From contig JBEARB010000067.1 of the NCBI GenBank assembly GCA_041163625.1, positions 426 to 64,425 of the forward strand: a stretch of 64,000 nucleotides of DNA, in the 5' to 3' direction. Shown here in pieces: positions 17,122 through 61,370 of this stretch (position 1 is the first letter of the stretch; each line of letters opens with the position of its first letter). A program made the position numbers and the translations under genes. The notes under the pieces are model-generated. The model made no database searches. It was given only the letters and a program-made list of their open reading frames with translations, and was not told the origin of the DNA. The DNA comes from Pseudomonadota bacterium (GTDB lineage: Bacteria; Myxococcota_A; UBA9042).

Positions 17122-17484
17122 GTCCGCGAACAGCCAGGGTCCGTCGTCGTCGTGTGCAGCACCTGCCGCAGCCGTCCCGCGTCGCCGCGGACCGTCTCGG
17201 GGACGTCCGGCGCGATGCTCAGGTGCAGCTCGACGCCTTCCCGGGTGGCGCGTGGCCGCTCCCCTGGTCGGTCGCGAGCGCATCCAGACGTTCGAGCAGG
17301 GTCGCGCGGCGGATGGCGACGTCGGGGCTGGACTTCATGCGTAGATCCTACGCCAGAACATGGCGCGATCGTCCTCTCCGACGACCACGACGTCAAGGCG
17401 CGGAACTGGCGGCCCCGGCGGCCCTTGCTACCATGCGACGGATTCCCCGCGGCGCGGCCGGCCCGTGCCGCGCGTGAGGTCCGG

Positions 17485-19242
17485 ATGCGTCGTCGCCCGA
17501 TTTCGTTCGACCTGCTGGCAGCCGCCGCTGCGATCTTCGCCGTGGTGGCGTGCGGGCCGAGCCAGGAGGGGCAGACGCCGGGCGGCGGCGGTGGCGTCGT
17601 GCTCGGCGACGACGTGCTTGCCCAAGACGTCGCCGGCACCAAGGACGGTTCGGGTGGCGGCAAGTTGCCGCCCTGCGGGACCGACGCGGACTGCGAGCTG
17701 CAACTCGTCACCGAGGGCTGTGAACGCGCGCGCTGCCTCGCCGGCAAATGCGTCCTCGGCACGGCCCTCGACGGGGAGAGCTGCCAGGACGGCGACGCCT
17801 GCACCCTCGAGGATCGGTGCCTCGGCGGCACGTGCCTGCCCGGATCGCCGCGGGTCTGCGACGACGACAACCCCTGCACCGCCGACAGCTGCGCGCCCGC
17901 CGACGGCGCCTGCGTCGCGGTGCCCGTCGACGGCGCCTGCCCGGCCGGCGGCGGCTGCGCGCTCGGCGTCTGCAAGGCGGGCAGCTGCGCCGTGGTCGAC
18001 GCCTACCCGAGCGTGGACCTCGCCGGCGACGCCACCGTCGCCACGCGCGGCGTCGCCGTCGGCAGCCAGCGTCTGCTGGTGGTGTCCGGGCCCGTCGGGT
18101 CGCCGTTCTCGCCGCGGCCCTTCGCCGGCGCGATGCACTGGCTCGACCGCGCCGGCGTGCCCGTCGCCACGCTGCCGACCGCCGCGACCCGGCTCGACGA
18201 CGCCGTCGCGCTGCCCGACGGCGGCTTCGTCTTGGTCGGGGCGCTGCCCCAGCAGGCGACGATGACGGCGCCGGGCGACCTGTCCGACGGTGCCCTCGTC
18301 CGCACCGATGCTCAGGGCACGGTGCTGTGGACGGTCGGCTACGGCACGCCCGCGCGCGACGCGCTGGTGGCCGTCGATCGCCGCGGCGACGGCGGGTTGG
18401 TCGCCGTCGGCGCGCGGCACATCGCGCACGACGGCGAGCCGGGCTTGGCCGAAGGCTGGCTGCTGCTGCTCACCGCCGGTGGGCAGATCACCCTCGACTA
18501 CCACTACGCGAGCCCACAGCCGCTGCTGCTGCGGGACGTCGCGGCGGTCGGCAACGCGGCGGTGGTCGCCGGCTGGCAGCAGGTCGACGCGGGCCACCGC
18601 GCCGGTCTGCTGATGCGCGTCGGCGCGGGCGCGGGAATCGAGAAGGTTCGTCAACTCGGCGTCGGCGCGGCGGCTGTCGCGGTGCTGTACGACGCGGCCC
18701 ACGGTCGGGTGGTGGCGGCGCTCGCGCCCGACCCGGGCGGCGACGGCGCCGGCGCGGTCTGGGTCGGCGACCTCGAGCTCGAGACGCTCGCGAAGGTCAG
18801 CACCGCGCCGCTGCACGTCGGCGCAGATCGCTTCGTTCCCGTAGGCTTGCAGCCCGGCGTCGGCGGCTGGCGGCTGGTCGGCACGCGCGGCGTCGGCACC
18901 ACGCTGGTCGCCGGGCTGGGGCCCTTCGCGGCGCTGCAGTGGTGGCGCGAGGTGCCGACGTTGAGCGGTCCGGCGTGGGTCGCGAGCGACGCCGGCGCGC
19001 TCTGGCTGGCCGGTGCGGCGCCCTCGACCTCCGCGCCGCGGCTTTGCCGCGTCGACGGCTTCGGCTATAGCGCTTGCACCACGGCCGGTGCGTGCGCGGC
19101 CGAGGCGGCCACGGGGTGCGACGACGGCGACCCCTGTTCGGCCGATTCATGCGAGCCGATCGCCGGTTGCGTCCACGACGCGCTCGGCGACGGCACTGTC
19201 TGCGGGGTCGCCAAGACCTGCGCCCTCGGCGTCTGTCCCTAG
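17485..19242 (+). CDS. Lipoprotein with N-terminal Myxococcus-type cysteine-rich repeats and a C-terminal beta-propeller-like domain.
   Basis: ATG 17485 is followed by the signal peptide plus lipobox AVVACG. The repeats are CQDGDACTLEDRCLGGTC and CDDDNPCTADSCAPADGAC, and similar repeats recur at the C-terminus. It ends 23 bp before hisG. Confidence 0.75.
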   Translation: MRRRPISFDLLAAAAAIFAVVACGPSQEGQTPGGGGGVVLGDDVLAQDVAGTKDGSGGGKLPPCGTDADCELQLVTEGCERARCLAGKCVLGTALDGESCQDGDACTLEDRCLGGTCLPGSPRVCDDDNPCTADSCAPADGACVAVPVDGACPAGGGCALGVCKAGSCAVVDAYPSVDLAGDATVATRGVAVGSQRLLVVSGPVGSPFSPRPFAGAMHWLDRAGVPVATLPTAATRLDDAVALPDGGFVLVGALPQQATMTAPGDLSDGALVRTDAQGTVLWTVGYGTPARDALVAVDRRGDGGLVAVGARHIAHDGEPGLAEGWLLLLTAGGQITLDYHYASPQPLLLRDVAAVGNAAVVAGWQQVDAGHRAGLLMRVGAGAGIEKVRQLGVGAAAVAVLYDAAHGRVVAALAPDPGGDGAGAVWVGDLELETLAKVSTAPLHVGADRFVPVGLQPGVGGWRLVGTRGVGTTLVAGLGPFAALQWWREVPTLSGPAWVASDAGALWLAGAAPSTSAPRLCRVDGFGYSACTTAGACAAEAATGCDDGDPCSADSCEPIAGCVHDALGDGTVCGVAKTCALGVCP

Positions 19243-45653: not shown

Positions 45654-46694
<1,041 letters not shown>

Positions 46695-46781
46695 GGGCGC
46701 GGAAGTTGCCGGATCGCGCCGACCTGCGCAAGACCCGACCCGGTTTGCGTTCCGGGGTCGGAAGGGGCAACCTCGCCGGCC

Positions 46782-47909
46782 ATGATCGCGGCCCCTGCCC
46801 ACGACTGTCCCCTCTCTCCCTTGGCACCGCTGCCCCGTTGGACCGCCGATCGTCCCGGCGTCGGCGGAGTCGCCCGAGCCCAGGTCGAGGATTTCGAGGT
46901 GGAGGAGTTGCCGCTCTACACCCCCTGTGGGCAGGGCGATCACCTCTACCTCTGGGTGCAGAAGCGCGATCTCGCCGGGCCGATGTTGCGCCGTGTGCTG
47001 AGCGAGCAGCTCGGTGTGCCGCAGGGCGATATCGGCATGGCCGGGCTGAAAGATCGCCGCGCCGTGACGCGCCAGTGGATCAGCGTGCCCGCCCGCGGCG
47101 TCGATCCCGACCGCCTCGACGATCCCCGCGTGCAGGTGCTGCGCGCCGAGCGCCACGGCAACAAGCTGCGCACCGGCCACCTCGCCGGCAACCGCTTCGT
47201 CGTGCGGCTGCGTGAACTCGAAGGCGATCCGAGTACGTTCGCCGGCCGCGTCGCCGCCAAGCTCGCGGCGATTCGCGAGCATGGCATGCCGAACTTCTAC
47301 GGTGAGCAGCGGATGGGCCACGGTGGTTCGACGCTCGCGGCGGGTTGGGCGCTCGGTGCCGGCCACGACGGTCGCGTACGCGTGCGCACGCCCGACGGCG
47401 TGGTGCACCAACTCCACCTGCGCGATCGCAGCCTGCGTCGGCTCGCCGCGAGCGCGGTGCAGTCGGAGATCTTCAACCGCGTCGTGGCCGCGCGCCTCGC
47501 AGCGGGCAGCCTCGATCGCGTTCTGCCCGGCGATCTCTGCCAGAAGACCGACACCGGGGGCTCCTTCGTGACCGACGACATCGTCCGCGAGCAGGGCCGG
47601 CTCGAGCGCGGCGAGGTCGCGATCACCGGCCCGATGTGGGGACCGAAGATGATGCGGCCCGCCGCAGACGTCGCTGCTCTCGAAGAGCGCGTGCTCGCCG
47701 AGTCCGGGCTCACCGAGTCGCTGTTCCGGACCATCGGGAGCCTGGCCGCCGGCACCCGTCGTGCCGTCGTCGTCCGCCCCGGCGAGCTCGAGGCGACGCT
47801 GGACGAGGACGGCTTGCAACTTCGCTTCACGCTGCCGGCTGGCAGCTTCGCCACGGTGCTCATGCACGAGTTCATGGGCCCCTCGGAGGATGCGCTGCCA
47901 TGCGCCTGA
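46782..47909 (+). CDS. truD: tRNA pseudouridine(13) synthase TruD.
   Basis: The sequence GQGDHLYLWVQKRDLAGPMLRRVLSEQLGVPQGDIGMAGLKDRRAVTRQW matches the TruD N-terminal consensus and includes the catalytic Asp. It is divergent from the FKBP gene. Confidence 0.85.
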   Translation: MIAAPAHDCPLSPLAPLPRWTADRPGVGGVARAQVEDFEVEELPLYTPCGQGDHLYLWVQKRDLAGPMLRRVLSEQLGVPQGDIGMAGLKDRRAVTRQWISVPARGVDPDRLDDPRVQVLRAERHGNKLRTGHLAGNRFVVRLRELEGDPSTFAGRVAAKLAAIREHGMPNFYGEQRMGHGGSTLAAGWALGAGHDGRVRVRTPDGVVHQLHLRDRSLRRLAASAVQSEIFNRVVAARLAAGSLDRVLPGDLCQKTDTGGSFVTDDIVREQGRLERGEVAITGPMWGPKMMRPAADVAALEERVLAESGLTESLFRTIGSLAAGTRRAVVVRPGELEATLDEDGLQLRFTLPAGSFATVLMHEFMGPSEDALPCA

Positions 47910-50900
47910 ACCTCGGACTTCTCGAGGCCGGCACTCGCCCGCCGCTCTGGCGCGCGGGCCGGGATCTCTTCCGCGCCGGTGGTGTGGTGCGCATCGCGCA
48001 GCGCGATCCCGAGGAGGATGGCGGCGACGGCTACGAAGCGGTCGTCGAGCCCGAACGTGGCCGCGAGCGGATGCACGTGGTGCTCGGCATCGATCTCTCC
48101 GGGCAGACCGCGGTCCTCGAAGAGTGGGCCTGCGATTGCTCCGACGCCGACGCGGCCTGCTCGCACGTGGTCGCCTCCGCGCTCGCTGTGCGCGACGTGC
48201 TCGGCCGCAGCGACAGCGAAGACGTCCTGGCCGATGCAGGCTGGCAGCAGCTCGCGGCGGCTGGCGCCACGGTCGCCGCGGGAGGGCTGCGCAACTCCTG
48301 GATCTGCTACGACCTCGCACTCGAGAGCCGCGACGGCGAGACCACCGTCGGCATCGTCCGGCGCAAGCGTTCGATGAACGAGCGCGGTGCCCGCGGCGGC
48401 GCCGTGCTCGGCTGGACCCCGACCGCCGTCGGACATTTCGGCTACCGAACGGGCTCGGATCCCGCCAAGAATCGAGACGACCTGATCCCGGTGCTCTGCG
48501 TGGTCAACCGCCACGATCTGCGCGTGCGCACGCTGCAGCCGGGCTTCGTCGACGTCTTCCTGCGGCTGTTCGTCGACGCCGAGCCCTATACGCTCCGCGT
48601 CGACGGCGAAGACGCCCGCGTCGATGGCGCCGAGCGGCCGATCACGCTCAGCGTCGAGGACGCCTCGGACGGGGGCCTCGAGGTCCGCGCCCGGCTGCGC
48701 AGCTTCGCGCCGGGTGGCGAGGAGGACGACGTCGTGCCGATGCCCGGCCCGGTGCCGTGGCTCTACATGCGTCGCGAGCACGCGATGGTGCGGCCGGCCA
48801 CCGGTTCGCCGCTGGTGCTCGAGTTGTTGCGTCGCCGCCGTGTGCACGTGCCTTCGGACGAGATCGACGCGTTCTGCCGCGACGTGCTGCCGCTGCTGCG
48901 CGCCGAGGGCGACCTGCGCGAGCGCTCGTCGCGTCTGCCGCCGCTGCGCTCGGCCACCGGCGTTGCGCGCATCCTGCTCGACGAGGTCGACGGCGCGCTC
49001 GCGGTCTCGCTCCGCTTCGGCTACCCGCCGCCGCCCGGACTGCCGGTCGATCGCGGGGAGGCGACGCAGGGCCTGGACGAGACCGGCCACTACGTCTTCG
49101 AGCCCGGCGTCGGCCAGCGCATCTTCGCGCGGCACGTCGGCGAGGGCGGCAAGAGCGTCCTCTGGCAGCGGGACGAGGCCTTCGAGCAGCATTGGCTGCA
49201 GCGCGTCTCGGACGCCGTTCACGCCGCGCTGCCCGCCACGCTCGCCACCGACGACGCACTCGACTTCCTGCTCGATCGCTTGCCGGAGCTCGAGGCCGAG
49301 GGCGCTCGCGTCTTCGGCCGCGAGGGGCTCACTGCGCTCCGGCCCGCGCGGCACGGCGTCTCGGCGCGCGTGCGCCTCTCGTCGGGCATGGATTGGTTCG
49401 GCATCCGCATCGAGATGCTCGCCGGCGATGTCGTGCTCGACACCGCCGACGTGCTGCGTGCGTTCCGCTCGGGCGCCCGCCACATCCGCCTGGACAACGG
49501 CGAGCTCGCCCGCCTGCCGACGGCGTGGCTGAACCGCAACCTCGGCGCCATCACCGATCTGCAGGAGCTCGGTCGCGAGGATGGCGAAGGCGGCTTCGAG
49601 GTCGCGCCCTACTTGGTGCCTTCGCTGCTGGACCTGGTCTCGGACCCGAGCGAGATCGACACGGGCTGGCGCTCGCTGCGCGACCGTCTGGCCGATTTCG
49701 CCGGTGTGACCGCATTGCCGCTGCCCGGCGGGCTGCAGGCCGACCTGCGCACCTACCAGAAGCACGGCTACGATTGGTTGTGCACGCTGCGTGACCTCGG
49801 CCTGCACGGCTGCTTGGCCGACGACATGGGCCTGGGCAAGACGGTGCAGACCTTGGCCGTGCTGCTCGCCGAGGTCGAAGCCGGCCGCGCGCGGGGCCCG
49901 TCGCTGGTGGTCGCGCCGACATCGGTGGTGCAGAACTGGGTCGACGAAGCCCGCCGCTTCGCGCCCAGCCTGCGCGTGCTGCGCCTGGGCGGCGAGGATC
50001 GCGCCGGCCGCATCGAGAGCCTCAACGCCGTCGCCGAGTACGACATCGTCGTCACCAGCTACGCGCTGCTGCGCCAGGACATCGACGTGCTCGGCGCCGT
50101 GGGCTTCCACTACGCGGTGCTCGACGAGGCTCAGGCGATCAAGAACCCGAACAGCCAGACGGCGAAGTCGGCGCGTCGCATCGACGCCCGCCACCGCCTG
50201 ACGCTGACCGGTACGCCGATCGAGAACAACCTGCTCGAGCTGTGGAGCCAGTTCGAGTTCCTGATGCCCGGCTTCTTCGGCAGCCGCGCCCGCTTCGTGC
50301 GGCGCTACGGCGCGGTCGGCGGCGACGGCGGTCGCGACGGCGCGGCAGAGGCGTTGCGGGTTCGTCTGCGCCCCTTCGTGCTGCGCCGGCTCAAGGCCGA
50401 CGTCGACCGCGAGCTGCCACCGGTGACCGAGATGACGGTGCGCTGCCAACTCGGGACCAGCCAGCGCGCGCTCTACGAGAAGGTGCGCAACACCTACCGC
50501 AGCCGCGTGCTCTCGCTCGTCGACGAGGTCGGCGTCGAGCGCGCCACGCTCGGCGTGCTCGAGGCGTTGCTGCGCCTGCGGCAGGCCGCTTGCCACCCCG
50601 ACCTGCTGCCCTTCACCGAGGCGCGCAAGGTGCGCGAGTCCGCCAAGACGCGCACCTTCCTGCAGACGCTCGGCGAGCTGCTCGACGAGGGCCGTCGCGT
50701 CCTGGTCTTCTCGCAATGGACCTCGATGCTGCGGATCTTGCGCACCGAGCTCGACGAGGTCGGCGTGCAATACGCCTACCTCGACGGTGCCACCCGCGAT
50801 CGCGCTGGCGTCGTGCAGGATTTTCAGCGGCCCGACGGCCCGAGCGTCTTCCTGATCAGCCTCAAAGCGGGCGGCGTCGGCCTGAATCTGACGGCGGCCG

Positions 50901-51208
50901 ATACCGTCATCCACTACGATCCGTGGTGGAATCCGGCCGCCGAGCAGCAAGCCAGCGATCGCGCGCACCGCATCGGCCAGACGCGTCCGGTGCTCGTGCT
51001 GCGCCTGGTCGCCGAAGACACCGTCGAGGAGATGATCCTCGCGCTGCAGGAGCGCAAGCGCGACCTGATGCGCCGCGCCATCGAGTCCGAGAGCGACGGC
51101 GTGAAGGCGCTCGGTCGTGACGATCTGCTCGAGATCTTCGGCGAGGGTGGTGCCACGCTGACCGAGCCGGTGGATCTCGGCTCCGACGCCGGCGCGCCGG
51201 CAGCCTGA
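47900..51208 (+). CDS. SNF2-family helicase/translocase with an N-terminal SWIM zinc finger.
   Basis: The SWIM motif is CDCSDADAACSH. The SNF2 motifs are GCLADDMGLGKTVQTL, DEAQAIKNP, LTGTPIENN and the helicase-C region (LISLKAGGVGLNLTAADTVIHYDPWWNPAAEQQASDRAHRIGQ). It overlaps truD by 10 nt. Confidence 0.9.
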   Translation: MRLNLGLLEAGTRPPLWRAGRDLFRAGGVVRIAQRDPEEDGGDGYEAVVEPERGRERMHVVLGIDLSGQTAVLEEWACDCSDADAACSHVVASALAVRDVLGRSDSEDVLADAGWQQLAAAGATVAAGGLRNSWICYDLALESRDGETTVGIVRRKRSMNERGARGGAVLGWTPTAVGHFGYRTGSDPAKNRDDLIPVLCVVNRHDLRVRTLQPGFVDVFLRLFVDAEPYTLRVDGEDARVDGAERPITLSVEDASDGGLEVRARLRSFAPGGEEDDVVPMPGPVPWLYMRREHAMVRPATGSPLVLELLRRRRVHVPSDEIDAFCRDVLPLLRAEGDLRERSSRLPPLRSATGVARILLDEVDGALAVSLRFGYPPPPGLPVDRGEATQGLDETGHYVFEPGVGQRIFARHVGEGGKSVLWQRDEAFEQHWLQRVSDAVHAALPATLATDDALDFLLDRLPELEAEGARVFGREGLTALRPARHGVSARVRLSSGMDWFGIRIEMLAGDVVLDTADVLRAFRSGARHIRLDNGELARLPTAWLNRNLGAITDLQELGREDGEGGFEVAPYLVPSLLDLVSDPSEIDTGWRSLRDRLADFAGVTALPLPGGLQADLRTYQKHGYDWLCTLRDLGLHGCLADDMGLGKTVQTLAVLLAEVEAGRARGPSLVVAPTSVVQNWVDEARRFAPSLRVLRLGGEDRAGRIESLNAVAEYDIVVTSYALLRQDIDVLGAVGFHYAVLDEAQAIKNPNSQTAKSARRIDARHRLTLTGTPIENNLLELWSQFEFLMPGFFGSRARFVRRYGAVGGDGGRDGAAEALRVRLRPFVLRRLKADVDRELPPVTEMTVRCQLGTSQRALYEKVRNTYRSRVLSLVDEVGVERATLGVLEALLRLRQAACHPDLLPFTEARKVRESAKTRTFLQTLGELLDEGRRVLVFSQWTSMLRILRTELDEVGVQYAYLDGATRDRAGVVQDFQRPDGPSVFLISLKAGGVGLNLTAADTVIHYDPWWNPAAEQQASDRAHRIGQTRPVLVLRLVAEDTVEEMILALQERKRDLMRRAIESESDGVKALGRDDLLEIFGEGGATLTEPVDLGSDAGAPAA

Positions 51209-51388: not shown

Positions 51389-51976
51389 ATGCCTGTCCGT
51401 CGAATCGTCCGCACCCTCTTCGTCGCCGCCTTGGTCGCCCTGGTCGCCGCCTGCAGCACCGAGCCCGGTAGCTCCGGTACCGGCGGCAACGACGCCCTCG
51501 TCGACGCCAGCAGCGGCAACGACGCCGCCGCCGACACCGGCACCGGCGGCCAGGACACCGTCGCCACCGACACCTCCGCCGCCGACGGCACCGTCGCGGA
51601 CGGCGCCACCGACGACGGCGCCATCGCCGACACGACCGATCCGCAGGACACCGGCCCGACCGGCCCGACCTTCGGCGAGGTCTTCACCCAGGTGATCGTC
51701 GCCGAGGGCTGCAACGGCCAGTACTGCCACGGCGGCATCTGGCCCGACGAAGCCAAGGCCTACAAGCACCTGACGACGGCCACGGTGAAGCTGCCGGCCT
51801 GCAAGAGCGCGGCCTACGTGACCCCGGGGGATGCGAGCAAGAGCTTGTTCTGGCTGAAGATCGACAGCACCGCGGTGCACGGATGCGGCAACAAGATGCC
51901 CGTCGAGAAGAAGGGCGTGACGGCCGCGCAATCCAAGCTGGTCAAGGACTGGATCGAAGCGGGTGCCAAGCCTTAG
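51389..51976 (+). CDS. Small lipoprotein with a PSCyt1-like (planctomycete-type cytochrome c) domain carrying an atypical CX4CH motif.
   Basis: GGAG precedes ATG 51389. The signal peptide plus lipobox is LVAACS, followed by a D/T/G-rich linker. The sequence CNGQYCHGG...SKSLFWLKI...WIEAGAKP is paralogous to the 52638..53117 protein and to the C-terminus of the first gene. Confidence 0.6.
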   Translation: MPVRRIVRTLFVAALVALVAACSTEPGSSGTGGNDALVDASSGNDAAADTGTGGQDTVATDTSAADGTVADGATDDGAIADTTDPQDTGPTGPTFGEVFTQVIVAEGCNGQYCHGGIWPDEAKAYKHLTTATVKLPACKSAAYVTPGDASKSLFWLKIDSTAVHGCGNKMPVEKKGVTAAQSKLVKDWIEAGAKP

Positions 51977-52007
51977 ACTCGGCGCTCCCCCAGCTTTCGG
52001 AGCCCCG

Positions 52008-52628
52008 ATGTCGCCGTCCCGTTCTCCCCTCGTCCCGCTCGTCGTCCTGGTCGCGACGCTCGTCGCGACCGGCTGTGGTCGCACCATGCAGCCGCGTACC
52101 AGCCGCCAACTCGATCCGTCGACGTGGCTGCAAGGCGCGGTCCTCGACGCTTCGGACGCCTACCCGATCGCCTTCTGGGCCGATCCCTGCCGGCCGCCGG
52201 CCGAGCACGAAGTGGGTAGCGACACGATCCGCACGCAGACGTGGCTCTGCCATTTCGCACGCCAGCTCAACGCAACCGTCGCCAAGCGGGGGCTGTACGA
52301 TGCCCGCTTCGCCTCGGCCGGCAAGGATGTGCTCGGCGGTCGAATCGAGGCCGGTCTGCACGAGTATCCCTGCGAGCCCGATGCGGTCGATCGCCTCAAG
52401 CGCGAGGCCGTGCGGCTCGCGCGCATCGAGCTGGTCAAGGCCGAGACCACGACGCTGCGCGAGACGACCGCGGTTCGCTTCCGCATCGCCGTGATCGTCG
52501 GTACGCAGCGACTCGAGTACGAGACCAACTCGTCGGTCGTGAGCTGGGACGTCGACGTTTTTCAACGCCTCGGCACGATGATCCTCTCGGATACGCGCTT
52601 CTGGTCGGCCGTGAAGATGGCGCTCTAG
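52008..52628 (+). CDS. Hypothetical lipoprotein.
   Basis: GGAG precedes ATG 52008. The signal peptide plus lipobox is LVATGCG. It is coding-like, with no homology that I recognise. Confidence 0.5.
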   Translation: MSPSRSPLVPLVVLVATLVATGCGRTMQPRTSRQLDPSTWLQGAVLDASDAYPIAFWADPCRPPAEHEVGSDTIRTQTWLCHFARQLNATVAKRGLYDARFASAGKDVLGGRIEAGLHEYPCEPDAVDRLKREAVRLARIELVKAETTTLRETTAVRFRIAVIVGTQRLEYETNSSVVSWDVDVFQRLGTMILSDTRFWSAVKMAL

Positions 52629-52637
52629 GCGCGTCGA

Positions 52638-53117
52638 CTACTCGGCGCCGGCCTCGATCCAGGCCCGCAGCTTCGCGATGGCGTCGGGATCGCTGCCGCC
52701 CGTCTGCACCGTCATGTCCGAGATCGGGCCGGAGCCGTCGCAGCCCGCGGCGCTGGCGTTGTCGAATTTCTGCCGCACCGTCTCGTCGAGCACGGCCATG
52801 AGGAGGCTCTCGTCCGGCTTGCCGGCCACCACGAAGGGCACGCCGTTGCAGGCGGCCTGGTTGCCGACCAAGCCCGCAGCGCTGCCGCCCTTGAGGGTGG
52901 CGCGCGCCGTGTCGGCAGTGGAGAAGTCCAGGCTGGTCTCCGCCCCCGAAGGCTGATTGCCCGGCGAGTGGCAGCTCGCGCATTTGTTGAGGTAGCCGTC
53001 GTAGGCGGCGGTGAAGTCGTCGCCGGCGGCGATGGCCTCGCAGCCGGCGGCCGCGACGAGGGTGGCGAGCAGGGCGGCACGGCCCGGCAGCGAACGGAAC
53101 AGCGAGCGCATCGTCAT
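52638..53117 (-). CDS. Small lipoprotein with a PSCyt1-like cytochrome c domain (CXXCH).
   Basis: The signal peptide plus lipobox is LVAAAGCE. The sequence CASCHSPG...VAGKPDESLLMAVL...WIEAGAE carries the heme-binding motif. Its ATG overlaps the stop of the upstream giant gene (ATGA). Confidence 0.6.
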   Translation of the reverse strand: MTMRSLFRSLPGRAALLATLVAAAGCEAIAAGDDFTAAYDGYLNKCASCHSPGNQPSGAETSLDFSTADTARATLKGGSAAGLVGNQAACNGVPFVVAGKPDESLLMAVLDETVRQKFDNASAAGCDGSGPISDMTVQTGGSDPDAIAKLRAWIEAGAE

Positions 53118-56100
53118 CCTCCGGTTGCGGGCGTGGTGCGGCCCGCGGCGCGACCCGCGACCGGCGCACCGGCGCCGTCGTCGAGCAACGTCAAATAGAG
53201 CTGCAGCGCGTCGCGGTCGGGGCGCCAACGCGGTGCGCCGAATTGGCAGAGCGCAGCGTACACGGCCCGCAGATCCGGCAAAAGGGGCCGGCCGAGCGCC
53301 GAGAGCGGTGCGCCTGCGAACAGGTGCAGCTCGGCGGCGGAGCGCACCAGCCAAATCCGCTCCGGCGGGGCGGGTGTGCCGGTCGCGCGGGCGAAGCGAT
53401 CTGCGTCCGCCAGCCCGGCGCCGAGGTCGGCCATCGCGGCGCGATGCTCGCCGAGCAGGCTGCGAGCGACGCCGCGGTGCCAGAGCATCGCGGCGCGGTC
53501 GAGGCGGCCACGGCTCTCGTCGTCGGCGTCCGCCAGCGCGGCGATCCGTCGATCGAGCAGGGGCAACGCGTCGCGTGGGCGACCGAGCAGCAGCTCCGCT
53601 CGCGCGCGCAGGCCGTCGCGCAACGCGAGCAGGCGCTTGCGGTCGGCCTCCAGCGGCGGTTGATGCGGACGCCGACCCGCCCGCAGCGCGTCTTCGTCCG
53701 CCTTGGCGAGCGCGGCGTCTGCCGTCGCCAAGTGCGCCAGCGTCGCCTTCCCATCGGCCGAAGCCAGCGCCGCGGCCGCCGCGACCAGCGCAGCGCGCGC
53801 ACGATTCGCGGCGACGCGCTGCAGCTCGGGGCGTGCGAGCAGCGCCTCGGACGCAGCCCGCCCGCGCGCGAGATCGCCGGATTCGAACGCATAGAGCGCC
53901 GTCCGGTCGAGCAGCAGCGTGCGGTGGCGGGCAAGCGTCGGGGTGGCGTCGAGTTTCGCTTGCGCGCGCGCGAGCGTGGCCAACGCGGCGTCGGCGAGGC
54001 CGACGTGCCATTGCGAGCGCGCGGTCGCCACCAGCACCGCCAGCTCGGCCTCGGGGTCGACGAAGGGCAACGCCATGCGTCGCGCGAACGAGTCCAGGGC
54101 GATCCGATGGTTGCCGACGGCCTGCTGCAACAACCCGAGCGCGGCGAGTAGCGCGCCACGGATGCGCGCGTCGCCGTCGGCCAGCGCCAGGGCGAGGCGG
54201 TAGCGGTCGTGTGCCTGCACCGCGAAACCGCGCCCGTCGCCGAGCAGGAAGCGTTGGTGTGCCACCCAGCCGCGGAGCTGATGCAAGTGGCGATCGCCTG
54301 GTGCGCCTCGTTGCGCGACCGCCAGGTCGGCGTCGGCCGCCTCGAGGGCCTCGCGTCGAGCATCTGCGTCGCCGCCGCCGCCTTCGGCCAGCGGCCGCAG
54401 CCGCAGCCACGCGTGCACCGTCCGCAGCGCGGGATGATCCGGCTGCTTCGCGAAGCGCTTGGTGACCTGACCGAGCACGTCGCGGTTGCCCTCGCGATGC
54501 TGTGCCTCGACGTAGCCGAGCCAAGCCTCGAGGTCGTCGGTCTGCAGGGTCACGCCGTAGAAGTTGGTGCGAGCGTCGCGGATCTGTCCGGTGTTCCAGG
54601 AGATCCACGCGCGTTCGAGCACGACCTGCCGGAACAGGTCGACGGCCTGCGCGCGGCCCGGATGGTCCCGCGGGATCACCGAGACGTAGGAATTGGCGAA
54701 CTGGTAGAGCAGCCAAGCGCTGTCGACCGCGGCCGCGCGGGCCACCGTCGCCCGAACCAGGGCGCGGCGTCGATCGAGCTCCCGCCAGCTGCGGAAGATG
54801 GCGAAGAGTTGTTCGCGGACGGTCTCTTCCTCGGCGCTGCCCAAGCCCGCCGTCGCCGCCACAGGCGGTCCCCGCTTGGACTTCGGCGGTAGCGCCAGCA
54901 GCGCGCGTTCGACATCGAGCCGCATCGCGAGCTCTCCGTCGGGCGCTGCCTTGGCACGCAGCCGCTCGATGGCCTCCCGACGCGCGACGACGCCGCGGCC
55001 GCGGGTGGCCTGGCGAACCAAGCGCTCTGCCACATCCAGGCGCTCGGCCGGCCGAAGCGCGCGATGCTCGCCCGCAGCCAGCAACCAAGCATCCGCTTCG
55101 GTGTGTGCCTGAAGTGCCCGGAGCCGCGGCACACCGAGCAGGACCACCGCGAGGATGGCGTCGTGACCGAGCGTGTCGGCGGCGCCCAGCCCCTGCACCT
55201 GCGCGAGGGCGAGCTCCTCACGACCGAGGTCGTCCAGAATCTCGGCGCGCACGAGTCGCAGCCAGGCTTGTCCGTCCGTGCTCGATTCGGCCTCGCCCAG
55301 GGTCGCGAGGCGCTTGTCGGCACGGTCGGCGAAGCCTTCGTCGCGGGCACCGGCGTCGACCCGCGCCAGCTCCTTGCGGTGGGCCGAGAGCGCGACGAGC
55401 GCGCGGGCCGCGGCGCTGCGGGCCGCGGAACCTGGACCGCTGCCGGCCTCCGCGGCCGCCCGTCCGGCGTACCAGGACGCGAGGGCCGTGTCGTTGCCGG
55501 CGAGCGCGCGCACCGCAAGGGCGCCGAACGTGGCGGACCGCGCCTCCGGTTGCCGTTGCCGTTGCACGAGGTTCGCAAGGAGCAGGCTCGCGACCTGGGG
55601 GTCGGTGCTGTGGTCGAGCGCCGTGAGGATCCGCGCCTCGGCCCACGCGGCCGGAACGACGCCGTCGGGCGGCAGGCTGTAGATATCGAGTCGACCGCCG
55701 CGCTCGCAGGTCAGGTAGAGCGCGTCCGCGGCAGGCGCCGGGTAGCGGCAATTCCACGAGGCGGGCGTCAGCTGTACCGGTGCGTCGCCCCGCAGCGGTG
55801 CCGCGTCGCCGGTTCGAAAGGGCAGTCGGAAGATGACGCCATGGTCGTCTCCGTCGACGACGCCGTCGCCGTTGGTGTCGCGCAGCGATTGCGTGAAGTA
55901 GAGCCACCGCCCATCGGGTGAGAACGCCGGAAATCCGGTCTCGCCAGGCAGGTCGACGCGCACCGTGCGGGTCCGCTTGGGGGCATCGACGCGGACGACG
56001 TGCAGGCCTCGCCCGAGCTGCATCGCGAAGTGCACGCCGACGGCGGTGCTCGCACGCTCGACGGGCACGTAGACCAGCCAGCGTCCGTCCGGGCTGACGG

Positions 56101-56656
56101 TGGGGGTCGACACCGAGCGATCGACGAGCACCTCGCCGTCCGCGACGCCGCCCGCCTTGTCGCCCCGCAGCCACACGCGGCGCAGCACCTGCTCGCCGTG
56201 CATCGAGCCGCGGGCGACCACGCCGAGGCTGGTGCCGTCCGGGAACCAGAACGCCGAACTCTCCGCGGTCTGCGGTCCACCGAGGCAGCGCCGAGCGCCG
56301 GTCTCGAGCGTGCGCAGGCAGACATCGCCGGTCGCGTCGTCGCGCGTCGAGATGTAGAGCAGCGTGCGACCGTCGGGCGAGAGGCGGGGCAGGCTGATGT
56401 CGGCGCCCTCGTCGAAGAGCGAGCGGGCTACGCCGTCCGGCAGCGTCTGGCGGAACGCGCCGACGACGGCGTCGCGGTTGCTGGCGAACACGAGCGTGCG
56501 GCCGTCCGGGCCGAGGCTGCCGAGGAATTGGTCGCTGTCGCCGGCAGTCAGACGCCGCGGCTCGCGCAGGGCGGCGTCGGTGCCGACCGGTCCCATCATC
56601 GCCGCGTGAGCCGACACGGCGAGCAGGAGCGTCAGACCGAAGCTCAGCGCTCGCAC
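53114..56656 (-). CDS. Large periplasmic protein with an N-terminal TolB-like (PD40/WD40-like) beta-propeller and a long TPR-like alpha-helical domain.
   Basis: GTG 56656 is followed by a signal peptide (LSFGLTLLLAVSAHA). There are repeated SPDGRxLxY PD40 motifs (LSPDGRTLLYIS, VSPDGRWLVYV, FSPDGRWLYFT), then about 800 aa of Ala/Leu/Arg-rich helices. The upstream 116 codons are Arg-rich and were discarded. Confidence 0.7.
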   Translation of the reverse strand: MRALSFGLTLLLAVSAHAAMMGPVGTDAALREPRRLTAGDSDQFLGSLGPDGRTLVFASNRDAVVGAFRQTLPDGVARSLFDEGADISLPRLSPDGRTLLYISTRDDATGDVCLRTLETGARRCLGGPQTAESSAFWFPDGTSLGVVARGSMHGEQVLRRVWLRGDKAGGVADGEVLVDRSVSTPTVSPDGRWLVYVPVERASTAVGVHFAMQLGRGLHVVRVDAPKRTRTVRVDLPGETGFPAFSPDGRWLYFTQSLRDTNGDGVVDGDDHGVIFRLPFRTGDAAPLRGDAPVQLTPASWNCRYPAPAADALYLTCERGGRLDIYSLPPDGVVPAAWAEARILTALDHSTDPQVASLLLANLVQRQRQPEARSATFGALAVRALAGNDTALASWYAGRAAAEAGSGPGSAARSAAARALVALSAHRKELARVDAGARDEGFADRADKRLATLGEAESSTDGQAWLRLVRAEILDDLGREELALAQVQGLGAADTLGHDAILAVVLLGVPRLRALQAHTEADAWLLAAGEHRALRPAERLDVAERLVRQATRGRGVVARREAIERLRAKAAPDGELAMRLDVERALLALPPKSKRGPPVAATAGLGSAEEETVREQLFAIFRSWRELDRRRALVRATVARAAAVDSAWLLYQFANSYVSVIPRDHPGRAQAVDLFRQVVLERAWISWNTGQIRDARTNFYGVTLQTDDLEAWLGYVEAQHREGNRDVLGQVTKRFAKQPDHPALRTVHAWLRLRPLAEGGGGDADARREALEAADADLAVAQRGAPGDRHLHQLRGWVAHQRFLLGDGRGFAVQAHDRYRLALALADGDARIRGALLAALGLLQQAVGNHRIALDSFARRMALPFVDPEAELAVLVATARSQWHVGLADAALATLARAQAKLDATPTLARHRTLLLDRTALYAFESGDLARGRAASEALLARPELQRVAANRARAALVAAAAALASADGKATLAHLATADAALAKADEDALRAGRRPHQPPLEADRKRLLALRDGLRARAELLLGRPRDALPLLDRRIAALADADDESRGRLDRAAMLWHRGVARSLLGEHRAAMADLGAGLADADRFARATGTPAPPERIWLVRSAAELHLFAGAPLSALGRPLLPDLRAVYAALCQFGAPRWRPDRDALQLYLTLLDDGAGAPVAGRAAGRTTPATGG

Positions 56657-57258
56657 GTCTTCGGTCCCCAGACGCCGGCCTGTTGCTCGATCATCCCGCC
56701 GCAGACGACGCGCTCGAGGTGGCTCGTGCGCCAGCGGTCGCGCAGGGTCTCGTACGGGACGTCCTTGCGCTGCCGAGCCAACCACGCCCAGACCTGCCGT
56801 CGCGAGCGATTCTCCCGCTCGACCAGGCGGCCGACCTCGGCCGGATCGACCGCTCCGGCGCAGCGGCGGGGCAGGCTGCGCAACGTGCCGTCGCGGGCTT
56901 CGCCGACGCAGCCGCGCAGCAAGAGCGCGTCCAGTCGTTCCTGCTCGTCTTCGGGGCGCCGCGTCATCGCCGCGATCGCGTCGTGCTCGGCTTTCGGGCG
57001 CCACCCGGCCGCCTCCAGCGTGGCGCGTGTCAGCGGTGCCGGGCGCGGGTCGGTCGCTTTGTCGTCGAGGCGGCGCTCGTCGGCCTCGAAACGGCCGGCA
57101 GCCTCGGCTTCGAGCGCCGTGCGACGGTCGACCAAGACCACGTCGGGCGCGCGGATGCAGCCGGACGCGCCCACGACCCAGCCGAGGGCGAGCGCCGTCG
57201 TGACCCAGCGGGGCGACGACGCGGCGTGGCGGCGGTGGTGTACGGGGCGGGCGTTCAC
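56644..57258 (-). CDS. Lipoprotein with a C-terminal YdbL-like (DUF1318) domain and an N-terminal extension, possibly YnbE-like.
   Basis: The signal peptide plus lipobox is VVGASGCI. The C-terminal segments ENRSRRQVWAWLARQ...ETLRDRW and LERVVCGGMIEQQAGVWGPK resemble the YdbL family, as recalled from memory. It overlaps the AsmA-like gene stop by 4 nt. Confidence 0.5.
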   Translation of the reverse strand: MNARPVHHRRHAASSPRWVTTALALGWVVGASGCIRAPDVVLVDRRTALEAEAAGRFEADERRLDDKATDPRPAPLTRATLEAAGWRPKAEHDAIAAMTRRPEDEQERLDALLLRGCVGEARDGTLRSLPRRCAGAVDPAEVGRLVERENRSRRQVWAWLARQRKDVPYETLRDRWRTSHLERVVCGGMIEQQAGVWGPKTCER

Positions 57259-60200
57259 GGCGGCGGGTCTCCCAGCAGCGGCAGGACGGCGCGGGTCATC
57301 AGCGGGCCGAGCGCGATGCCGCGAATCTCATCGATGCGGACCAAGTCGGCAAGGCCACCGAGCTCGACCTTCACATCGGCGAAGCCGTGCCGGAAGCGTA
57401 GCCGCATCTGTTCGGGATAGCCCAGCTTCAGCGCCAAGCGCGCGCGGTTGGCCTGGAGGTCCTCGTGATAGGGGTCGAGCAGGTCCAGCGCGGCCAGCAG
57501 GTGGCCCTTCGACAGGCGCAGCACCTGGGCGCGGCCCTGCACGGCGAGACGCCACGGCTGCAGCTCGAGCGCGGCGTTGGCGTCGATGCGTCCGGGCTGA
57601 TTCGGTAGGCGCAGGCCCGTGACGTTGCCGCGCAGCAGGACGCGCGTGTCGGCGCCGTCCCACTCGATCGCGCATTGGCCGGTGAGCTGACCGCCGAGCA
57701 GGCGCATCTCGAGTTGGTCGAGGCGGAACACGTCGCGGTCGACGCTGGCGTTGGCGGCGAGCGGGCCGACCTGGTGCTTGCCCAGCCGCAGCGACTGCAC
57801 CGCCAGGAAGTGGTCGCCGGTCAGGAAGGGCTGCTGGTCGACGTAGCGCCATCGGGCCCAGAGGCTGCGCCGCCCGCCGCCGAGCGGACGGACCTGCATC
57901 CCTTCGCGCGCGAGCTCGAAGCGCAGCGGGATCTCGCCCTGCACGCCCACGATCTCGGCGTCGGTGGCGGCATGGCGGGCCCCCACGCCCTCGAGGTGGG
58001 CGCGCGCTTGCACACCGAGTACGCGGAAATCGCCGGTCTCGATCGCGAACGGCAGGCGCACGACGCCCTGGGTCCGGACCCCGAAGAGCTCGGGCAGGCG
58101 GTCGAGGTCCTGCCGGAGTTCGCCGTCGACTGCGGCGCCGCGCGCACCCGGGACGCCGCCGTCGTCGTCGTCCGAGAGGCCGATGCGATCGATGCGACCG
58201 CGCGCCCAACCCGAGCTCCCGGTGGCTTCGTTGCTGAAGGTCGCGCGCTCGAGTGCGAGTTTGCCGACCCGGTCGACATGGGCGCGGACGGTGGCGCGCG
58301 CGTCGGCGACCGGCAGCGCCGGCATCAGGTCCTGATCGAGGCGCTCGAGCTTCGCCTCGCCCTGCAGTTCCAGCCCGCGCAGGCTGCGGTCCAGTGGCCC
58401 CTTGACCCGTAGCGTGCCGCCGGCCTTGCGGAGGTCGAAGGGGTGGGCGCCGAACGCGCCACGCATCCGCAGCATGGCGCCCTCGAAGGTGGCCTCGAAG
58501 CGGCCTTGGCTCACGCTGAGCTGCATGCCGCCGTCGACCTGCGGCGCGGCGACGTCGAGACCCTCCTGATGGCAGCGCAGGCCGTAGACGGTCGCTTTGC
58601 CCTCGGCGCGGACGTCGGCCGCGGCCGGCCGATCGGCCCACGCCGCGAGTGTCGCCGGGCGGTCCAGCGCGGCCAGCGGCAGCCGAATCGCAAGCGTGCC
58701 CTCGCCGTGCAGCCGCTCGCCGTCGATGCACGGCACGCCGGCGGCCAGGGCGGCACCCAGCTTGCCGAGCTTGCGCACCTTGCCGCTGCCCTCGAGCTGC
58801 CAGCCGTCCCCGCGCCGGACGGCCAAGCTCGCCTCGCCACGGGTCTTGCCGTCCAGGTCCAGCCGCGCGCGCAACGTCGCGGAGCGCAGGCGCTGGTCCG
58901 CCAGGGCGACCTCGACCTCGGCCTGCGCCCGGGTCGCCGGGGTGCGTGCGCCGTCGACGCGCAGGCCCTCGGGCAGCAGCACGATCGTTGCGTTCAGACC
59001 GGTCGCGCGCACGGTGCCCGACATCGTCGAGCGCAGGCGTTGGCCGCTGACCACGCGCTGTTGCATTCGCAGCTCGTAGCCGTCGAGCTGCAGGGCGCTC
59101 TCGTGCTCCGCCCGGGCGGCGAGGAGCCATCGCGCCCAATCGTCGGCCGGCTTCGCGTGCGGCAACGCCAGGCTGCCCCGGCTCTCGACGCCGACGTGGC
59201 TGAGCTTGCGCACGACGACGGCGCCGTCGCGCGGGAGCCGGACACCGACGGTCGCGGCGAGCTGCAGCGGGTCGCGCACGCCGAGCCGACCATCCCATCG
59301 CAGCGGCGCGTCCGCCGGTCGGCGCGCGGTGAGCGCGGCGTCCATGCCCGGGCCGGTGGCGCGGAGCGTCAGACGATCGAGCTCGAATGCTCTGACGGCC
59401 GTGGGATCGGCGCCGGCGCGGGCGGCAAGGCCACGCAGGTCCAACTCCGCGCGCGCGGTGCCGGGCAGCGCGTGCCGCCCGACGCGCAGCTGCGCCACGT
59501 CGCCGCGCGCGTGGGCCTCGTCGCAACGCCAAGATCCGTCGGCGCCTCGGCGAACGCCCGCGGCAGACAGCTCCGCCTTCGCCTCGCTGAGCGCGATCGC
59601 CTCGCCGCCGAAATCGGCGTCGAGCGACTCGGCCGCGACCTCGAGCCGTTGTCGTGCCGGGTCGCCCTCTGCCTGCAGCGACGCTGCGCGCACTTCGGCC
59701 GACGCCCCCGCTGCCCGTCCGCTCGCGCGCTCGACACCGGCGTCGATCCGCCCGGCGAGCCCGCCGGCCCAGCGCGCATCGAGCCGCGGCGACTCGAGCG
59801 TGGCGCGCGCGTCGCCGACGGCGCCCGCGAGTTCTCGGGCGCGCAGCGCGACCGTGGCGCCGGGCTCGGGCTTCAGCGATGGCCAGCCCGCTGCGGCGTC
59901 CACCGCCACGGTGGCGTCGCGGACGCGGGCCGTCACGCCGCGCGCGGCGGCGTCCAGGTCGCGCGTCTCCGCGCGCAGGCCGACGACCAGCCGGTCGCCC
60001 AGACCGTGCGCCTGCAGCGTGGCCTTCGCGTGCGTCACCGCCAGCCTCGCCGTCGGCGCGCGCACGTCGACCGCGTCGAGCGCGACGGTCGCGGTGAGGT
60101 CGGCAGCCAGCGCCACCGCGGAGATCTCGCGTGCCGCACCGCTGGCGGTCGCGGTGAAAAGGCCCGGCCATCGCGCGGCGAGGGTGAGCGCTTCCAGTCG

Positions 60201-61370
60201 CGGGCGCAGGGGGGCCCCGGCGGTGCTCGGGTCGTCCACCGCACCGCGGAGCGAAAAGCGCGCCTCTCGGCTCGGTTCCTCCGTCGAGAGCGTGACGCGG
60301 CCGCCCTCGACGGTGACGCTGGCGCCCGGCCCGCCGACGTGGACCTCGACCCGAACGGCCGCGAAATCCTCGGCGCCGATGCAGCCCCGCGCGCCGCCGA
60401 GCCAGCGCAGCGACGGGCTCCGCACCCCGGCCTGGAGCCGAACGCGGTCGCGGGCGAGCTCGAGCCGCAGGGTCGGCGTCGCGCGCGCCTCGGCGGTGGC
60501 GGCGTCGGCCGGGGCCGCGGCGACGGCGCGGGTCCACGCATCGGCCAGGCCGACGGCGTCGTCGACCCAGGGCTGCAGCTCGGGCGGCAGCGCGTCCGGC
60601 CGCGACGCCAGCGCCTCGGCCACGCGGTCGAGCAGCCAGGTCCGCGGGAGCCCGTCGATCCGCACCTGCCACGGCGCCCCGTCGGTCGTCATCGTGGCGA
60701 CAGTCTCGGCGTCGCCGTCCGCGCGTAGGCGGATGCCTCCGCCGTCGATGGTGAGGCGTGCATCGGTTCCGGCGAGCGCGGCTCGAACCGAGATGCCCTG
60801 CACGGACAGCGCGTCGAGCGCGTAGCCGCGGGCCGCGTCGAGCGCGCGCAGCCAGCCCGAGGGCGGCACCGGCGGGCTCGGCTCGCTCGGCGGCGGGAGC
60901 GTCAGCGCGCGCGCCCAGCTGCCGCCACCCTCGCCGCCGACCACGACACCGATGTGCACGCCGCGCACGGTGATCGCGTCCACGCGCCGCGTCTGCTCGA
61001 GCAGGGCGCCCAGGCGCCAACGGATCTCGACTTCGTCGACGGCCAGCAGGGGGCCGACGCGCGCGTCGTCCGCCGGCGGATTCTCGATGCGCAGTCCGCG
61101 CAGCACCAAGCCCGACGCGCTCACCGCGCCGGACTCGTAGCGCAACGTCGCGCCGGCCAGGTCCTGCGCCAGCGCGGCCACGCGGCCCTGCACGAGCGGG
61201 TGCGCGAGGTGGCCGGCCAGCCACGCGCCCACGCCGATCGCGCCGATCGCGCCGAGCAGGCAGGCGATCGCGAGCCGTCGCAGCCAACGTCGTCGCGGAC
61301 GCGGCGGCGTGACCGGATGGCGTTCCTGCGCGGCGGCGGGCGGCAGCTCGAACGGCGGCTCCTGCGACAA
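57255..61370 (-). CDS. Giant (1371 aa) N-terminally anchored envelope protein, AsmA-family (YdbH/TamB-like).
   Basis: TTG 61370 is preceded by a strong SD, GGGAGG. An N-terminal TM helix (LAIACLLGAIGAIGVGAWLAG) follows a basic stretch (RPRRRW). The body is very long, Ala/Gly/Arg/Leu/Asp-rich and beta-rich. Its genomic coupling to a YdbL-like gene mirrors the E. coli ydbH-ynbE-ydbL arrangement. The upstream 651 track codons are Arg-rich and overlap the previous gene in another frame. Confidence 0.55.
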   Translation of the reverse strand: MSQEPPFELPPAAAQERHPVTPPRPRRRWLRRLAIACLLGAIGAIGVGAWLAGHLAHPLVQGRVAALAQDLAGATLRYESGAVSASGLVLRGLRIENPPADDARVGPLLAVDEVEIRWRLGALLEQTRRVDAITVRGVHIGVVVGGEGGGSWARALTLPPPSEPSPPVPPSGWLRALDAARGYALDALSVQGISVRAALAGTDARLTIDGGGIRLRADGDAETVATMTTDGAPWQVRIDGLPRTWLLDRVAEALASRPDALPPELQPWVDDAVGLADAWTRAVAAAPADAATAEARATPTLRLELARDRVRLQAGVRSPSLRWLGGARGCIGAEDFAAVRVEVHVGGPGASVTVEGGRVTLSTEEPSREARFSLRGAVDDPSTAGAPLRPRLEALTLAARWPGLFTATASGAAREISAVALAADLTATVALDAVDVRAPTARLAVTHAKATLQAHGLGDRLVVGLRAETRDLDAAARGVTARVRDATVAVDAAAGWPSLKPEPGATVALRARELAGAVGDARATLESPRLDARWAGGLAGRIDAGVERASGRAAGASAEVRAASLQAEGDPARQRLEVAAESLDADFGGEAIALSEAKAELSAAGVRRGADGSWRCDEAHARGDVAQLRVGRHALPGTARAELDLRGLAARAGADPTAVRAFELDRLTLRATGPGMDAALTARRPADAPLRWDGRLGVRDPLQLAATVGVRLPRDGAVVVRKLSHVGVESRGSLALPHAKPADDWARWLLAARAEHESALQLDGYELRMQQRVVSGQRLRSTMSGTVRATGLNATIVLLPEGLRVDGARTPATRAQAEVEVALADQRLRSATLRARLDLDGKTRGEASLAVRRGDGWQLEGSGKVRKLGKLGAALAAGVPCIDGERLHGEGTLAIRLPLAALDRPATLAAWADRPAAADVRAEGKATVYGLRCHQEGLDVAAPQVDGGMQLSVSQGRFEATFEGAMLRMRGAFGAHPFDLRKAGGTLRVKGPLDRSLRGLELQGEAKLERLDQDLMPALPVADARATVRAHVDRVGKLALERATFSNEATGSSGWARGRIDRIGLSDDDDGGVPGARGAAVDGELRQDLDRLPELFGVRTQGVVRLPFAIETGDFRVLGVQARAHLEGVGARHAATDAEIVGVQGEIPLRFELAREGMQVRPLGGGRRSLWARWRYVDQQPFLTGDHFLAVQSLRLGKHQVGPLAANASVDRDVFRLDQLEMRLLGGQLTGQCAIEWDGADTRVLLRGNVTGLRLPNQPGRIDANAALELQPWRLAVQGRAQVLRLSKGHLLAALDLLDPYHEDLQANRARLALKLGYPEQMRLRFRHGFADVKVELGGLADLVRIDEIRGIALGPLMTRAVLPLLGDPPP

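Follow-up and report, generated by a model that had tools for sequence, protein, structure and literature searches.

The analysed window is a high-GC stretch of 64 kb (contig JBEARB010000067.1) from a bacterial metagenome-assembled genome (MAG), and the only homologue-supported open reading frames (ORFs) at its positions 51389-53117 are two small lipoprotein genes, which we call gene A and gene B. We consider it reasonably probable that both encode single-haem lipoprotein cytochromes of an uncurated family, and that gene B is a partner of the envelope operon at whose end it lies. Most of the residual doubt in this combined reading falls on the physical or functional link, and less on cytochrome identity.

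Gene A (51389..51976, plus strand) is an ORF call with orthologues that are 58-99% identical, and its ATG is preceded by a GGAG 7 nt upstream. The 195-aa product is identical to MEY3012180.1, a MAG protein annotated as hypothetical protein, and consists of a lipobox cysteine, an acidic, low-complexity, disordered tether of ~70 residues rich in D, T, G and A (residues 23-95; 51458..51673, plus strand) and a haem-c domain of ~100 aa with the attachment motif CNGQYCH (CX4CH; 51710..51730, plus strand). Gene B (52638..53117, minus strand), an ORF with 13 relatives, encodes a 157-159-aa lipoprotein whose short tether leads to a haem-c domain bearing the attachment motif CASCH (C46, C49 and H50; 52968..52982, minus strand). 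Its first ATG overlaps the TGA stop codon of the gene upstream; translation probably begins at the second ATG (53111), because a GGAGG lies 6 nt upstream of it, giving a product of 157 aa. Each protein has an N-terminal signal peptide ending in a lipobox cysteine (pattern [LVI][ASTVI][GAS]C), which reads LVAAC followed by S in gene A, AAAGC followed by E in gene B and L.GC in the homologues of gene B; no member of the gene B family lacks this cysteine, and across 123 relatives it is conserved to at least 90%. The AlphaFold2 model of gene B has a mean predicted local distance difference test score (pLDDT) of 85, with the domain above 90, while in the model of gene A the domain exceeds 90 and the tether stays below 50. 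The first-pass annotation of this DNA had placed the two genes divergently. Their orientation is in fact convergent, with a third ORF between them that encodes a predicted lipoprotein of 206 aa, here called 'mid' (52008..52628, plus strand; ATG with GGAG upstream). The 'mid' gene starts 32 nt past the end of gene A, and the two are probably co-transcribed; Pfam and NCBIfam scans of the 'mid' protein returned no family.

The proteins of genes A and B had been proposed as paralogs, and they are homologous across the whole domain. Direct comparison by BLASTP gave an E-value of 2e-4, and a profile-profile alignment of the A family with the B family, built from the 6 relatives of gene A and the 13 of gene B that a word-indexed search of 5.8 billion proteins retrieved, gave a probability of 97.1% (E 4.8e-11, 96 columns). 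In this alignment the haem motifs are in register, with the first cysteines of CXXCH and CX4CH sharing one column, which supports A and B as paralogous, periplasm-facing lipoproteins. A third copy is found at the C-terminus of gene C (3..2750, plus strand), a predicted dehydrogenase gene truncated 5' by the window border, where it forms the second haem domain (2427..2726, plus strand). A hidden Markov model (HMM) of 123 family sequences, run against 535 six-frame segments of the window, found this C-terminus as its sole non-self match (E 4.4e-5), and a smaller profile aligned gene C from CGSCH via [10 protein letters not shown] and FMPP to QAWI. The four motifs read from the sequence at first pass are all present at checked coordinates, namely CASCH in gene B, CNGQYCH in gene A, and in gene C both CGICH (2169..2183, plus strand), its first haem motif, and CGSCH (2442..2456, plus strand), which is followed by [14 protein letters not shown] and QAWI. 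The similarity claimed for all three copies is significant between A and B, between B and gene C (BLASTP 3e-4) and between the family HMM and gene C, but not between A and gene C alone, for which BLASTP found no significant match. Likewise, a domain running from CxxCH to WI is common to the three, but the motif proposed to unite them is incomplete, since gene A reads PGDASKSL and not GKP..S(L/V)L. Taken together, the alignments show that gene A, gene B and the gene C C-terminus carry one shared type of haem-c domain, of which the gene C copy is a distant member and gene A the most diverged of the three.

To place this domain, we searched a combined A+B profile exhaustively with HMMER against 1.84 billion cluster representatives, which yielded 1,913 clusters (50% identity) at E <= 1e-3, of which 290 had E <= 1e-10. 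Among the top 150 matches nearly all are 145-210 aa long, showing that the standalone form of about 150 aa, previously thought unusual, is the norm of the family; a few are 300-360 aa and contain two copies of the domain (P0073, P0081, P0098, P0107, P0119, P0127, P0162 and P0166). Some of these two-domain members combine CXXCH with CX3CH or CX4CH in one protein, and they may be dihaem relatives that resemble the iron-oxidising cytochrome FoxE. No Pfam or NCBIfam model claims the mini-cytochrome family, and all retrievable source names are 'hypothetical protein'.

The domain comprises ~110 mostly helical residues, with a CXnCH motif (n=2, sometimes 3 or 4), a G.P..S.L turn and a C-terminal WI..GA helix. 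In gene B numbering, C46, C49, H50 and C126 are invariant in all 123 aligned family sequences; the lipobox C26, F35, A71, C90, S104, W153, I154, G157 and A158 are at least 90% conserved. C90 is present in 121 of the 123 and could form a disulfide with C126, and both of these conserved cysteines are missing at the corresponding positions of the gene C copy. Among 167 collected sequences, the attachment motif is CXXCH in 144, and 22 have at least one CX3CH or CX4CH; the histidine after the second cysteine is never lost, even at spacing 3 or 4. The description of CX4CH as a rare spacing is therefore right in that the motif is genuine, conserved and uncommon, but variant spacings recur in the family. 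Attachment of haem c through CX4CH is well established for the cytochrome c3 of Desulfovibrio and for proteins of Geobacter. In the gene A lineage it appears to have arisen by insertion of two residues between the cysteines, because the five close relatives P0014-P0018 conserve C[NS]GQYCH while the distant P0019 has CNFCH.

The putative distal-ligand loop, which follows C126, contains His in 71 of the 123 sequences, Met in 41, both in 4 and neither in 7, such that one or other residue is available in 116. Three subtypes of this loop can be distinguished: 'C.P...H' in the 71 His-type members, 'CG.[KR]MP' in the type of gene A and 'I[ST]DM' in that of gene B. The A-type loop is conserved and corresponds to a classical Met-Pro distal loop, whereas the sixth ligand of the B-type is uncertain because its candidate, Met135, is replaced in 12 of 44 distinct cytochromes from the loci we collected. 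The axial ligands of A and B are thus putative assignments, read from these alignments.

Comparison with solved structures points in the same direction. In a search of the family profile against PDB sequences, FoxE (5MAB) ranked first (E 5.6e-4), aligning over both of its haem domains and the WILAGAPN helix; CcoP ranked second and aligned around the haem motif only; hydrazine synthase α (HZS-α; 5C2V) ranked third (E 0.0096), spanning the whole domain from CxxCH to WIDLGAQ (residues 653-766). A Foldseek search of the gene A model against 350,542 PDB chains matched chains of two proteins only, namely HZS-α (E 0.16, probability 0.72) and FoxE (E 4.9). Each of these signals is weak, but they are concordant between the profile and the structure search, and we regard the agreement as informative: the same module may well form the FoxE haem domains and the haem-αII domain of HZS-α. 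Both are proven haem-c proteins (PMC10654088, PMC12758564). FoxE of Rhodobacter ferrooxidans SW2 is a helical, dihaem, Fe(II)-oxidising protein with His/Met-ligated haems and a stabilising disulfide (PMC10654088), and haem αII of HZS-α is bis-His-ligated, with the distal His772 located after the WI helix (PMC12758564). The NCBIfam model hydrazine_alpha is additionally matched by 5 of the 123 family members (best E 2.8e-6). From their sequence features, it is very likely that each of A and B is a single-haem c-type cytochrome with covalently attached haem.

These likenesses have limits. FoxE has two domains that exchange Met ligands, while A and B have one domain each, and no foxY or foxZ adjoins A or B, whose neighbours are a lipoprotein gene, the PD40/TPR gene and an SNF2-family helicase gene. 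We considered A and B as FoxE-type Fe(II) oxidases and rejected this on the same grounds of a single domain, a single haem motif and the missing foxY and foxZ; the domain is only related, and the marginal match does not imply a role in Fe(II) oxidation. FoxE is encoded together with FoxY, a beta-propeller protein containing pyrroloquinoline quinone (PQQ), a pairing that echoes the propeller partners of the mini-cytochromes. In HZS-α the domain is fused into an 800-aa enzyme and appended to a beta-propeller protein, as in gene C, whereas A and B are free lipoproteins.

The second part of our reading concerns the genes next to gene B, which closes a row of four minus-strand genes that overlap or are separated by gaps of a few nt at most. 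The first placeable gene of this module encodes an N-terminally membrane-anchored, AsmA/TamB-like protein of ~1,350 aa (57255..61313, minus strand). It is followed by a gene for a 204-aa lipoprotein of the DUF1318 (YdbL) family (56644..57258, minus strand), whose C-terminal half matches DUF1318 with 30.9 bits (cut-off 27), and by the gene for a TolB-like PD40/TPR protein of ~1,180 aa (53114..56656, minus strand), with an N-terminal PD40 propeller (Pfam PD40 1.4e-20; partial match to the NCBIfam TolB propeller, 8e-13) and a C-terminal part that is long, helical and weakly TPR-like. The AsmA-like protein gave N-terminal, in-register matches to AsmA (E 0.0028; 17 bits, cut-off 29.8) and DUF748 (E 0.0087). 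Among its relatives, P0188 has the domains PF05359 and PF05170, and the Joint Genome Institute names P0189 TamB; a profile search of the PDB with the AsmA-like protein found no match.

We examined the conservation of this arrangement in two scans. Using the close family of gene B as query and one genome per species, we found 16 MAGs from Myxococcota and Bradymonadales; in all 16 the PD40/TPR gene is followed by the cytochrome gene on the same strand, and in 15 a DUF1318 gene also lies upstream, L018 having no detectable one. A second scan, of metagenomes, was seeded with the PD40/TPR protein and not with the cytochrome. Here, 22 loci had a full-length match and room downstream, and in 21 of them a cytochrome (E 1e-29 to 1e-51) is encoded 15-190 nt from the PD40/TPR gene; in the sole exception, L056 (13324..15066), a gene for a multi-pass membrane protein takes its place. 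Together, the scans show the linkage in 37 of 38 testable loci, to which L020 and L101 can be added, over a GC range of 43-76%. The family members that are only ~27% identical to gene B and of the His-type lie on contigs of 43-57% GC, where they adjoin a homologous block encoding a ~985-aa protein, a ~90-aa lipoprotein and a PD40/TPR homologue of ~1,170 aa (E 5e-49), with the cytochrome gene now convergent. Pfam and NCBIfam scans of these low-GC module proteins found no family, and the TPR matches in the PD40/TPR homologue of L020 are weak. Gene B is thus almost always encoded at the end of the operon, and because the linkage survives both sequence divergence and a change of orientation, it argues for a functional tie. 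This bears out the suggestion, made from the window alone, that gene B is a partner of the adjacent envelope machinery; in the literature searched, we found no mention of a linkage between a cytochrome and such an operon.

Among characterised systems, the first two genes of the module appear to come closest to the ydbH-ynbE-ydbL operon of Escherichia coli, in which an AsmA-like intermembrane lipid bridge is encoded with a lipoprotein and a periplasmic modulator (PMC11126948). The module likewise begins with a membrane-anchored giant protein resembling AsmA/TamB, with a lipoprotein that carries a DUF1318 (YdbL-family) domain directly after it. Neither a PD40/TPR protein nor a cytochrome belongs to the E. 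coli operon, whereas in the module DUF1318 is fused to a lipoprotein N-terminal domain or, in the low-GC variants, is missing, and the AsmA match is sub-threshold. The DUF1318 protein of the window looks like a fusion, its N-terminal half matching lipoproteins of 85-92 aa that occupy the same slot in low-GC loci (L020, 10061..10318; L022, 12057..12335), and the position of this small lipoprotein is that of ynbE in E. coli. Pfam and NCBIfam scans of the module proteins gave no YnbE family match.

Gene A is distributed differently. It occurs together with 'mid' only in the closest genomes (L001, on the same contig as L004, and L005, L006 and L008), while 'mid' is present without gene A in L007, L009 and L024. 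The 'mid' gene stands tail-to-tail with the 3' end of gene B in ~8 related loci (L001 with its duplicates L002-L004, L005-L009 and L024) and may be a further accessory of the module. Elsewhere, A-type members directly follow a ~330-aa gene with faint cytochrome-c-like matches (L023, L099) or are solitary (L021, L100). At L023 (194..1635) and L099 (7030..8447) the two genes overlap or abut, which suggests a distinct conserved pair. By this pattern, gene A is a lineage-restricted paralogue from a sister subfamily, and not part of the core of the module.

Putting these observations together, the gene B protein would be a stoichiometric partner of an envelope complex formed by the AsmA-like, DUF1318 and PD40/TPR proteins, most likely docking on the PD40/TPR protein and giving the complex a one-electron redox or ligand-sensing centre; the packing of the four genes is tight enough to suggest translational coupling. 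The gene A protein, in turn, could be a tethered His/Met cytochrome that acts with the 'mid' lipoprotein.

Several observations weigh against this combined reading. Met135, the putative sixth ligand in gene B, is exchanged for Glu, Gln, Gly or Ala in the 12 sequences mentioned above, all of which come from module-linked loci, and the 7 aligned members with neither His nor Met in the loop add to this; either the ligand is a residue other than Met135, or six-coordination of the haem is not uniform. Nor can the distal-ligand position be transferred from HZS-α, in which His772 lies past the WI..GA helix where A and B end. Covalent haem attachment is deduced from sequence, every match to a haem protein of solved structure is marginal (E 5.6e-4 to 0.16), and the Foldseek search of the gene B model against the PDB returned one meaningless match only. 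On the side of the operon, the AsmA-like assignment draws on sub-threshold Pfam matches and annotated relatives, and no redox partner is encoded in the module. The loci with a replaced Met135 are L011, L014-L017, L029, L030, L033, L037, L038, L049 and L067, where the preceding Asp is kept; if the distal haem ligand sits at this position, such a replacement would be out of the ordinary.

A bolder version of the same idea, which we think rather unlikely, makes the mini-cytochrome the obligate fourth subunit of an unrecognised trans-envelope machine consisting of an AsmA/TamB-like bridge, a YdbL-like lipoprotein, a TolB-like propeller/TPR scaffold and the haem lipoprotein, in which the haem would be a redox or ligand sensor or a catalytic centre. 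Its distal position would switch between Met, His and non-ligating residues across lineages, and through the haem the periplasmic redox state would be coupled to lipid transport or homeostasis at the outer membrane. We know of no earlier redox cofactor tied to an AsmA-like system.

Alternatively, the position of gene B could be without functional meaning, A and B being generic soluble-type carriers of the c551 or c6 kind that serve respiration. Family members do weakly match profiles of cytochromes c551, c6 and c550 and of CcoP around the haem motif, A-type members occur in the other contexts described above, and L056 has a PD40/TPR locus without a cytochrome. The linkage of B-type and His-type members to the operon, however, holds in so many loci, over so wide a range of GC content and through an inversion, that it is not what drift would leave; in the window the stop codon of the PD40/TPR gene overlaps the first ATG of gene B, and we saw no respiratory genes in the neighbourhood of gene B. 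Because Met135 is variable, the simple electron-carrier model is further weakened, a variable putative distal ligand being atypical of a dedicated electron shuttle. We therefore judge this alternative unlikely and retain the combined reading, in which gene B would belong functionally to the envelope operon.

The first-pass annotation had instead regarded the domains as PSCyt1 (PF07635), unusual as standalone lipoproteins, with A and B as electron carriers for the PQQ dehydrogenase of gene C. PSCyt1 is indeed the top Pfam match of gene B (E 0.0018), aligned from CxxCH onward, but the score of 19.3 bits is below the gathering cut-off of 22 and covers profile positions 1-32 of 59, and gene A and gene C have no match. 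Matches to PSCyt1 recur in 12 of the 19 close relatives and in 17 of the wider 123, all of them weak (best E among the 123, 0.0017), whereas Cytochrome_CBB3 (45 of 123) and TIGR03806 (60 of 123, best E 4e-9) match more members; Cytochrom_C is matched by 19 of 123, and these matches, like those to Cytochrome_CBB3, are below threshold. The G.P..S.L turn resembles what we take to be the PSCyt1 consensus, and can be counted in favour of that assignment. PSCyt1 usually occurs within large multidomain proteins of the Planctomycetes-Verrucomicrobia-Chlamydiae (PVC) group, together with PSCyt2 and PSD1 (Pfam description, PMC3542564). In contrast, genes A and B encode 195 and 157-159 aa with no other domain, and gene C combines the domain with GSDH and TIGR03806; no PSCyt2 or PSD1 partner domains are present. 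By the Pfam criterion, the mini-cytochrome domain is not a member of PSCyt1, although the two probably share a broad superfamily.

A role as electron carriers for the dehydrogenase fares no better. Gene C does carry a related haem domain, and its product is a PQQ-dependent dehydrogenase by family, with predicted PQQ binding: an acidic low-complexity N-terminus (135..360, plus strand) is followed by a propeller matching GSDH (PF07995) over residues 186-476 with 146.8 bits (cut-off 25, E 1.2e-42) and by a dihaem module. A distance of 49 kb and a series of housekeeping genes (hisG, a ClpB-like ATPase, an HrpB-type helicase, a methyltransferase and others) set it apart from A and B, and it already has two haems of its own; no linkage to such a gene is seen at any related locus. 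The distance and the intervening genes led us to reject a functional link, and the PSCyt1-based explanation as a whole appears improbable.

The most consistent curated relative of A and B is the second haem domain of TIGR03806, the SO2930/HNE_0200 family of dihaem cytochromes, which shares with them the CxxCH motif, the G.P..S.L turn, the Met-Pro loop and the WI helix. The C-terminal 340 residues of gene C match this model over positions 2-314 of 314 (E 4.6e-60) and contain two CxxCH motifs, but with 203 bits they are below the curated cut-off of 313.3, so that the dihaem module of gene C is at best a divergent SO2930/TIGR03806 member. A and B differ from TIGR03806 in having one haem each, a lipid anchor and a 3-4-fold shorter chain; they match its last third weakly (E 7.9e-4 for gene B, 0.013 for gene A), and since they match only this third and have a single haem, we rejected them as members.

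That CxxCH does not bind haem at all, the four conserved cysteines of the domain forming two disulfides or a metal site in a Cys-rich structural module, would fit the sub-threshold matches to all curated cytochrome families, the variable B-type distal ligand and the lack of a Foldseek match between the gene B model and PDB cytochromes, but is highly improbable given that the histidine after the second cysteine is kept in 123 of 123 sequences and at spacings of 3 and 4, a signature of haem c and not of a disulfide, that all mini-cytochrome proteins have an export signal, that the A-type has its Met-Pro loop, and that the two haem-c proteins FoxE and HZS-α rank first and third in the profile search and are the sole proteins found by Foldseek.

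Other features of the window and its relatives were noted in passing. Upstream of gene A lies a gene for an SNF2-family helicase with an SNF2_assoc domain (47900..51208, plus strand), which is syntenic with A, 'mid' and B in L001 and L005-L008 and has no obvious functional tie to them. A large protein with CTDC repeats of the Dictyostelium type is encoded at 15892..19242 (plus strand), and a similar one lies near the module in L001 (1..2182), where GCS2/CBS and TruD genes accompany it, showing that synteny reaches well past the module. Long acidic stretches rich in D, T, A and G, placed between the signal or anchor and the folded part, are common to gene A and the N-terminus of gene C and are a source of spurious profile matches in the window: those of the A profile at 45657..48503 and 6620..8086 are low-complexity matches that stem from the acidic tether and not from the haem domain. 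A weak match of the A-family HMM at 6153..6311 (minus strand) was discarded as an out-of-frame artefact of high-GC sequence. The MAG of the window is labelled 'Pseudomonadota bacterium', and those of L005 and L009 'uncultured Enterobacteriaceae' despite their myxobacterial synteny; since all relatives are Myxococcota or Bradymonadales, these labels are probably wrong.

The AsmA-like proteins YhdP, TamB and YdbH are candidates for the phospholipid route to the outer membrane, and how these proteins are regulated or powered is an open question (PMC11126948, PMC8593681). A c-type cytochrome that keeps in step with a module of AsmA-like, YdbL-like and TolB-like proteins, in Myxococcota as well as in unrelated low-GC lineages, is a testable hint of a redox cofactor in such a system. 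The mini-cytochromes also constitute a haem-lipoprotein family of ~1,900 clusters outside Pfam and NCBIfam, with ties to haem domains in FoxE, in hydrazine synthase α and in the SO2930 family, and a family definition should improve the annotation of thousands of 'hypothetical proteins'. With CXXCH, CX3CH and CX4CH motifs and Met, His or no distal ligand in one fold, its members provide a natural series for the study of haem attachment and ligation.

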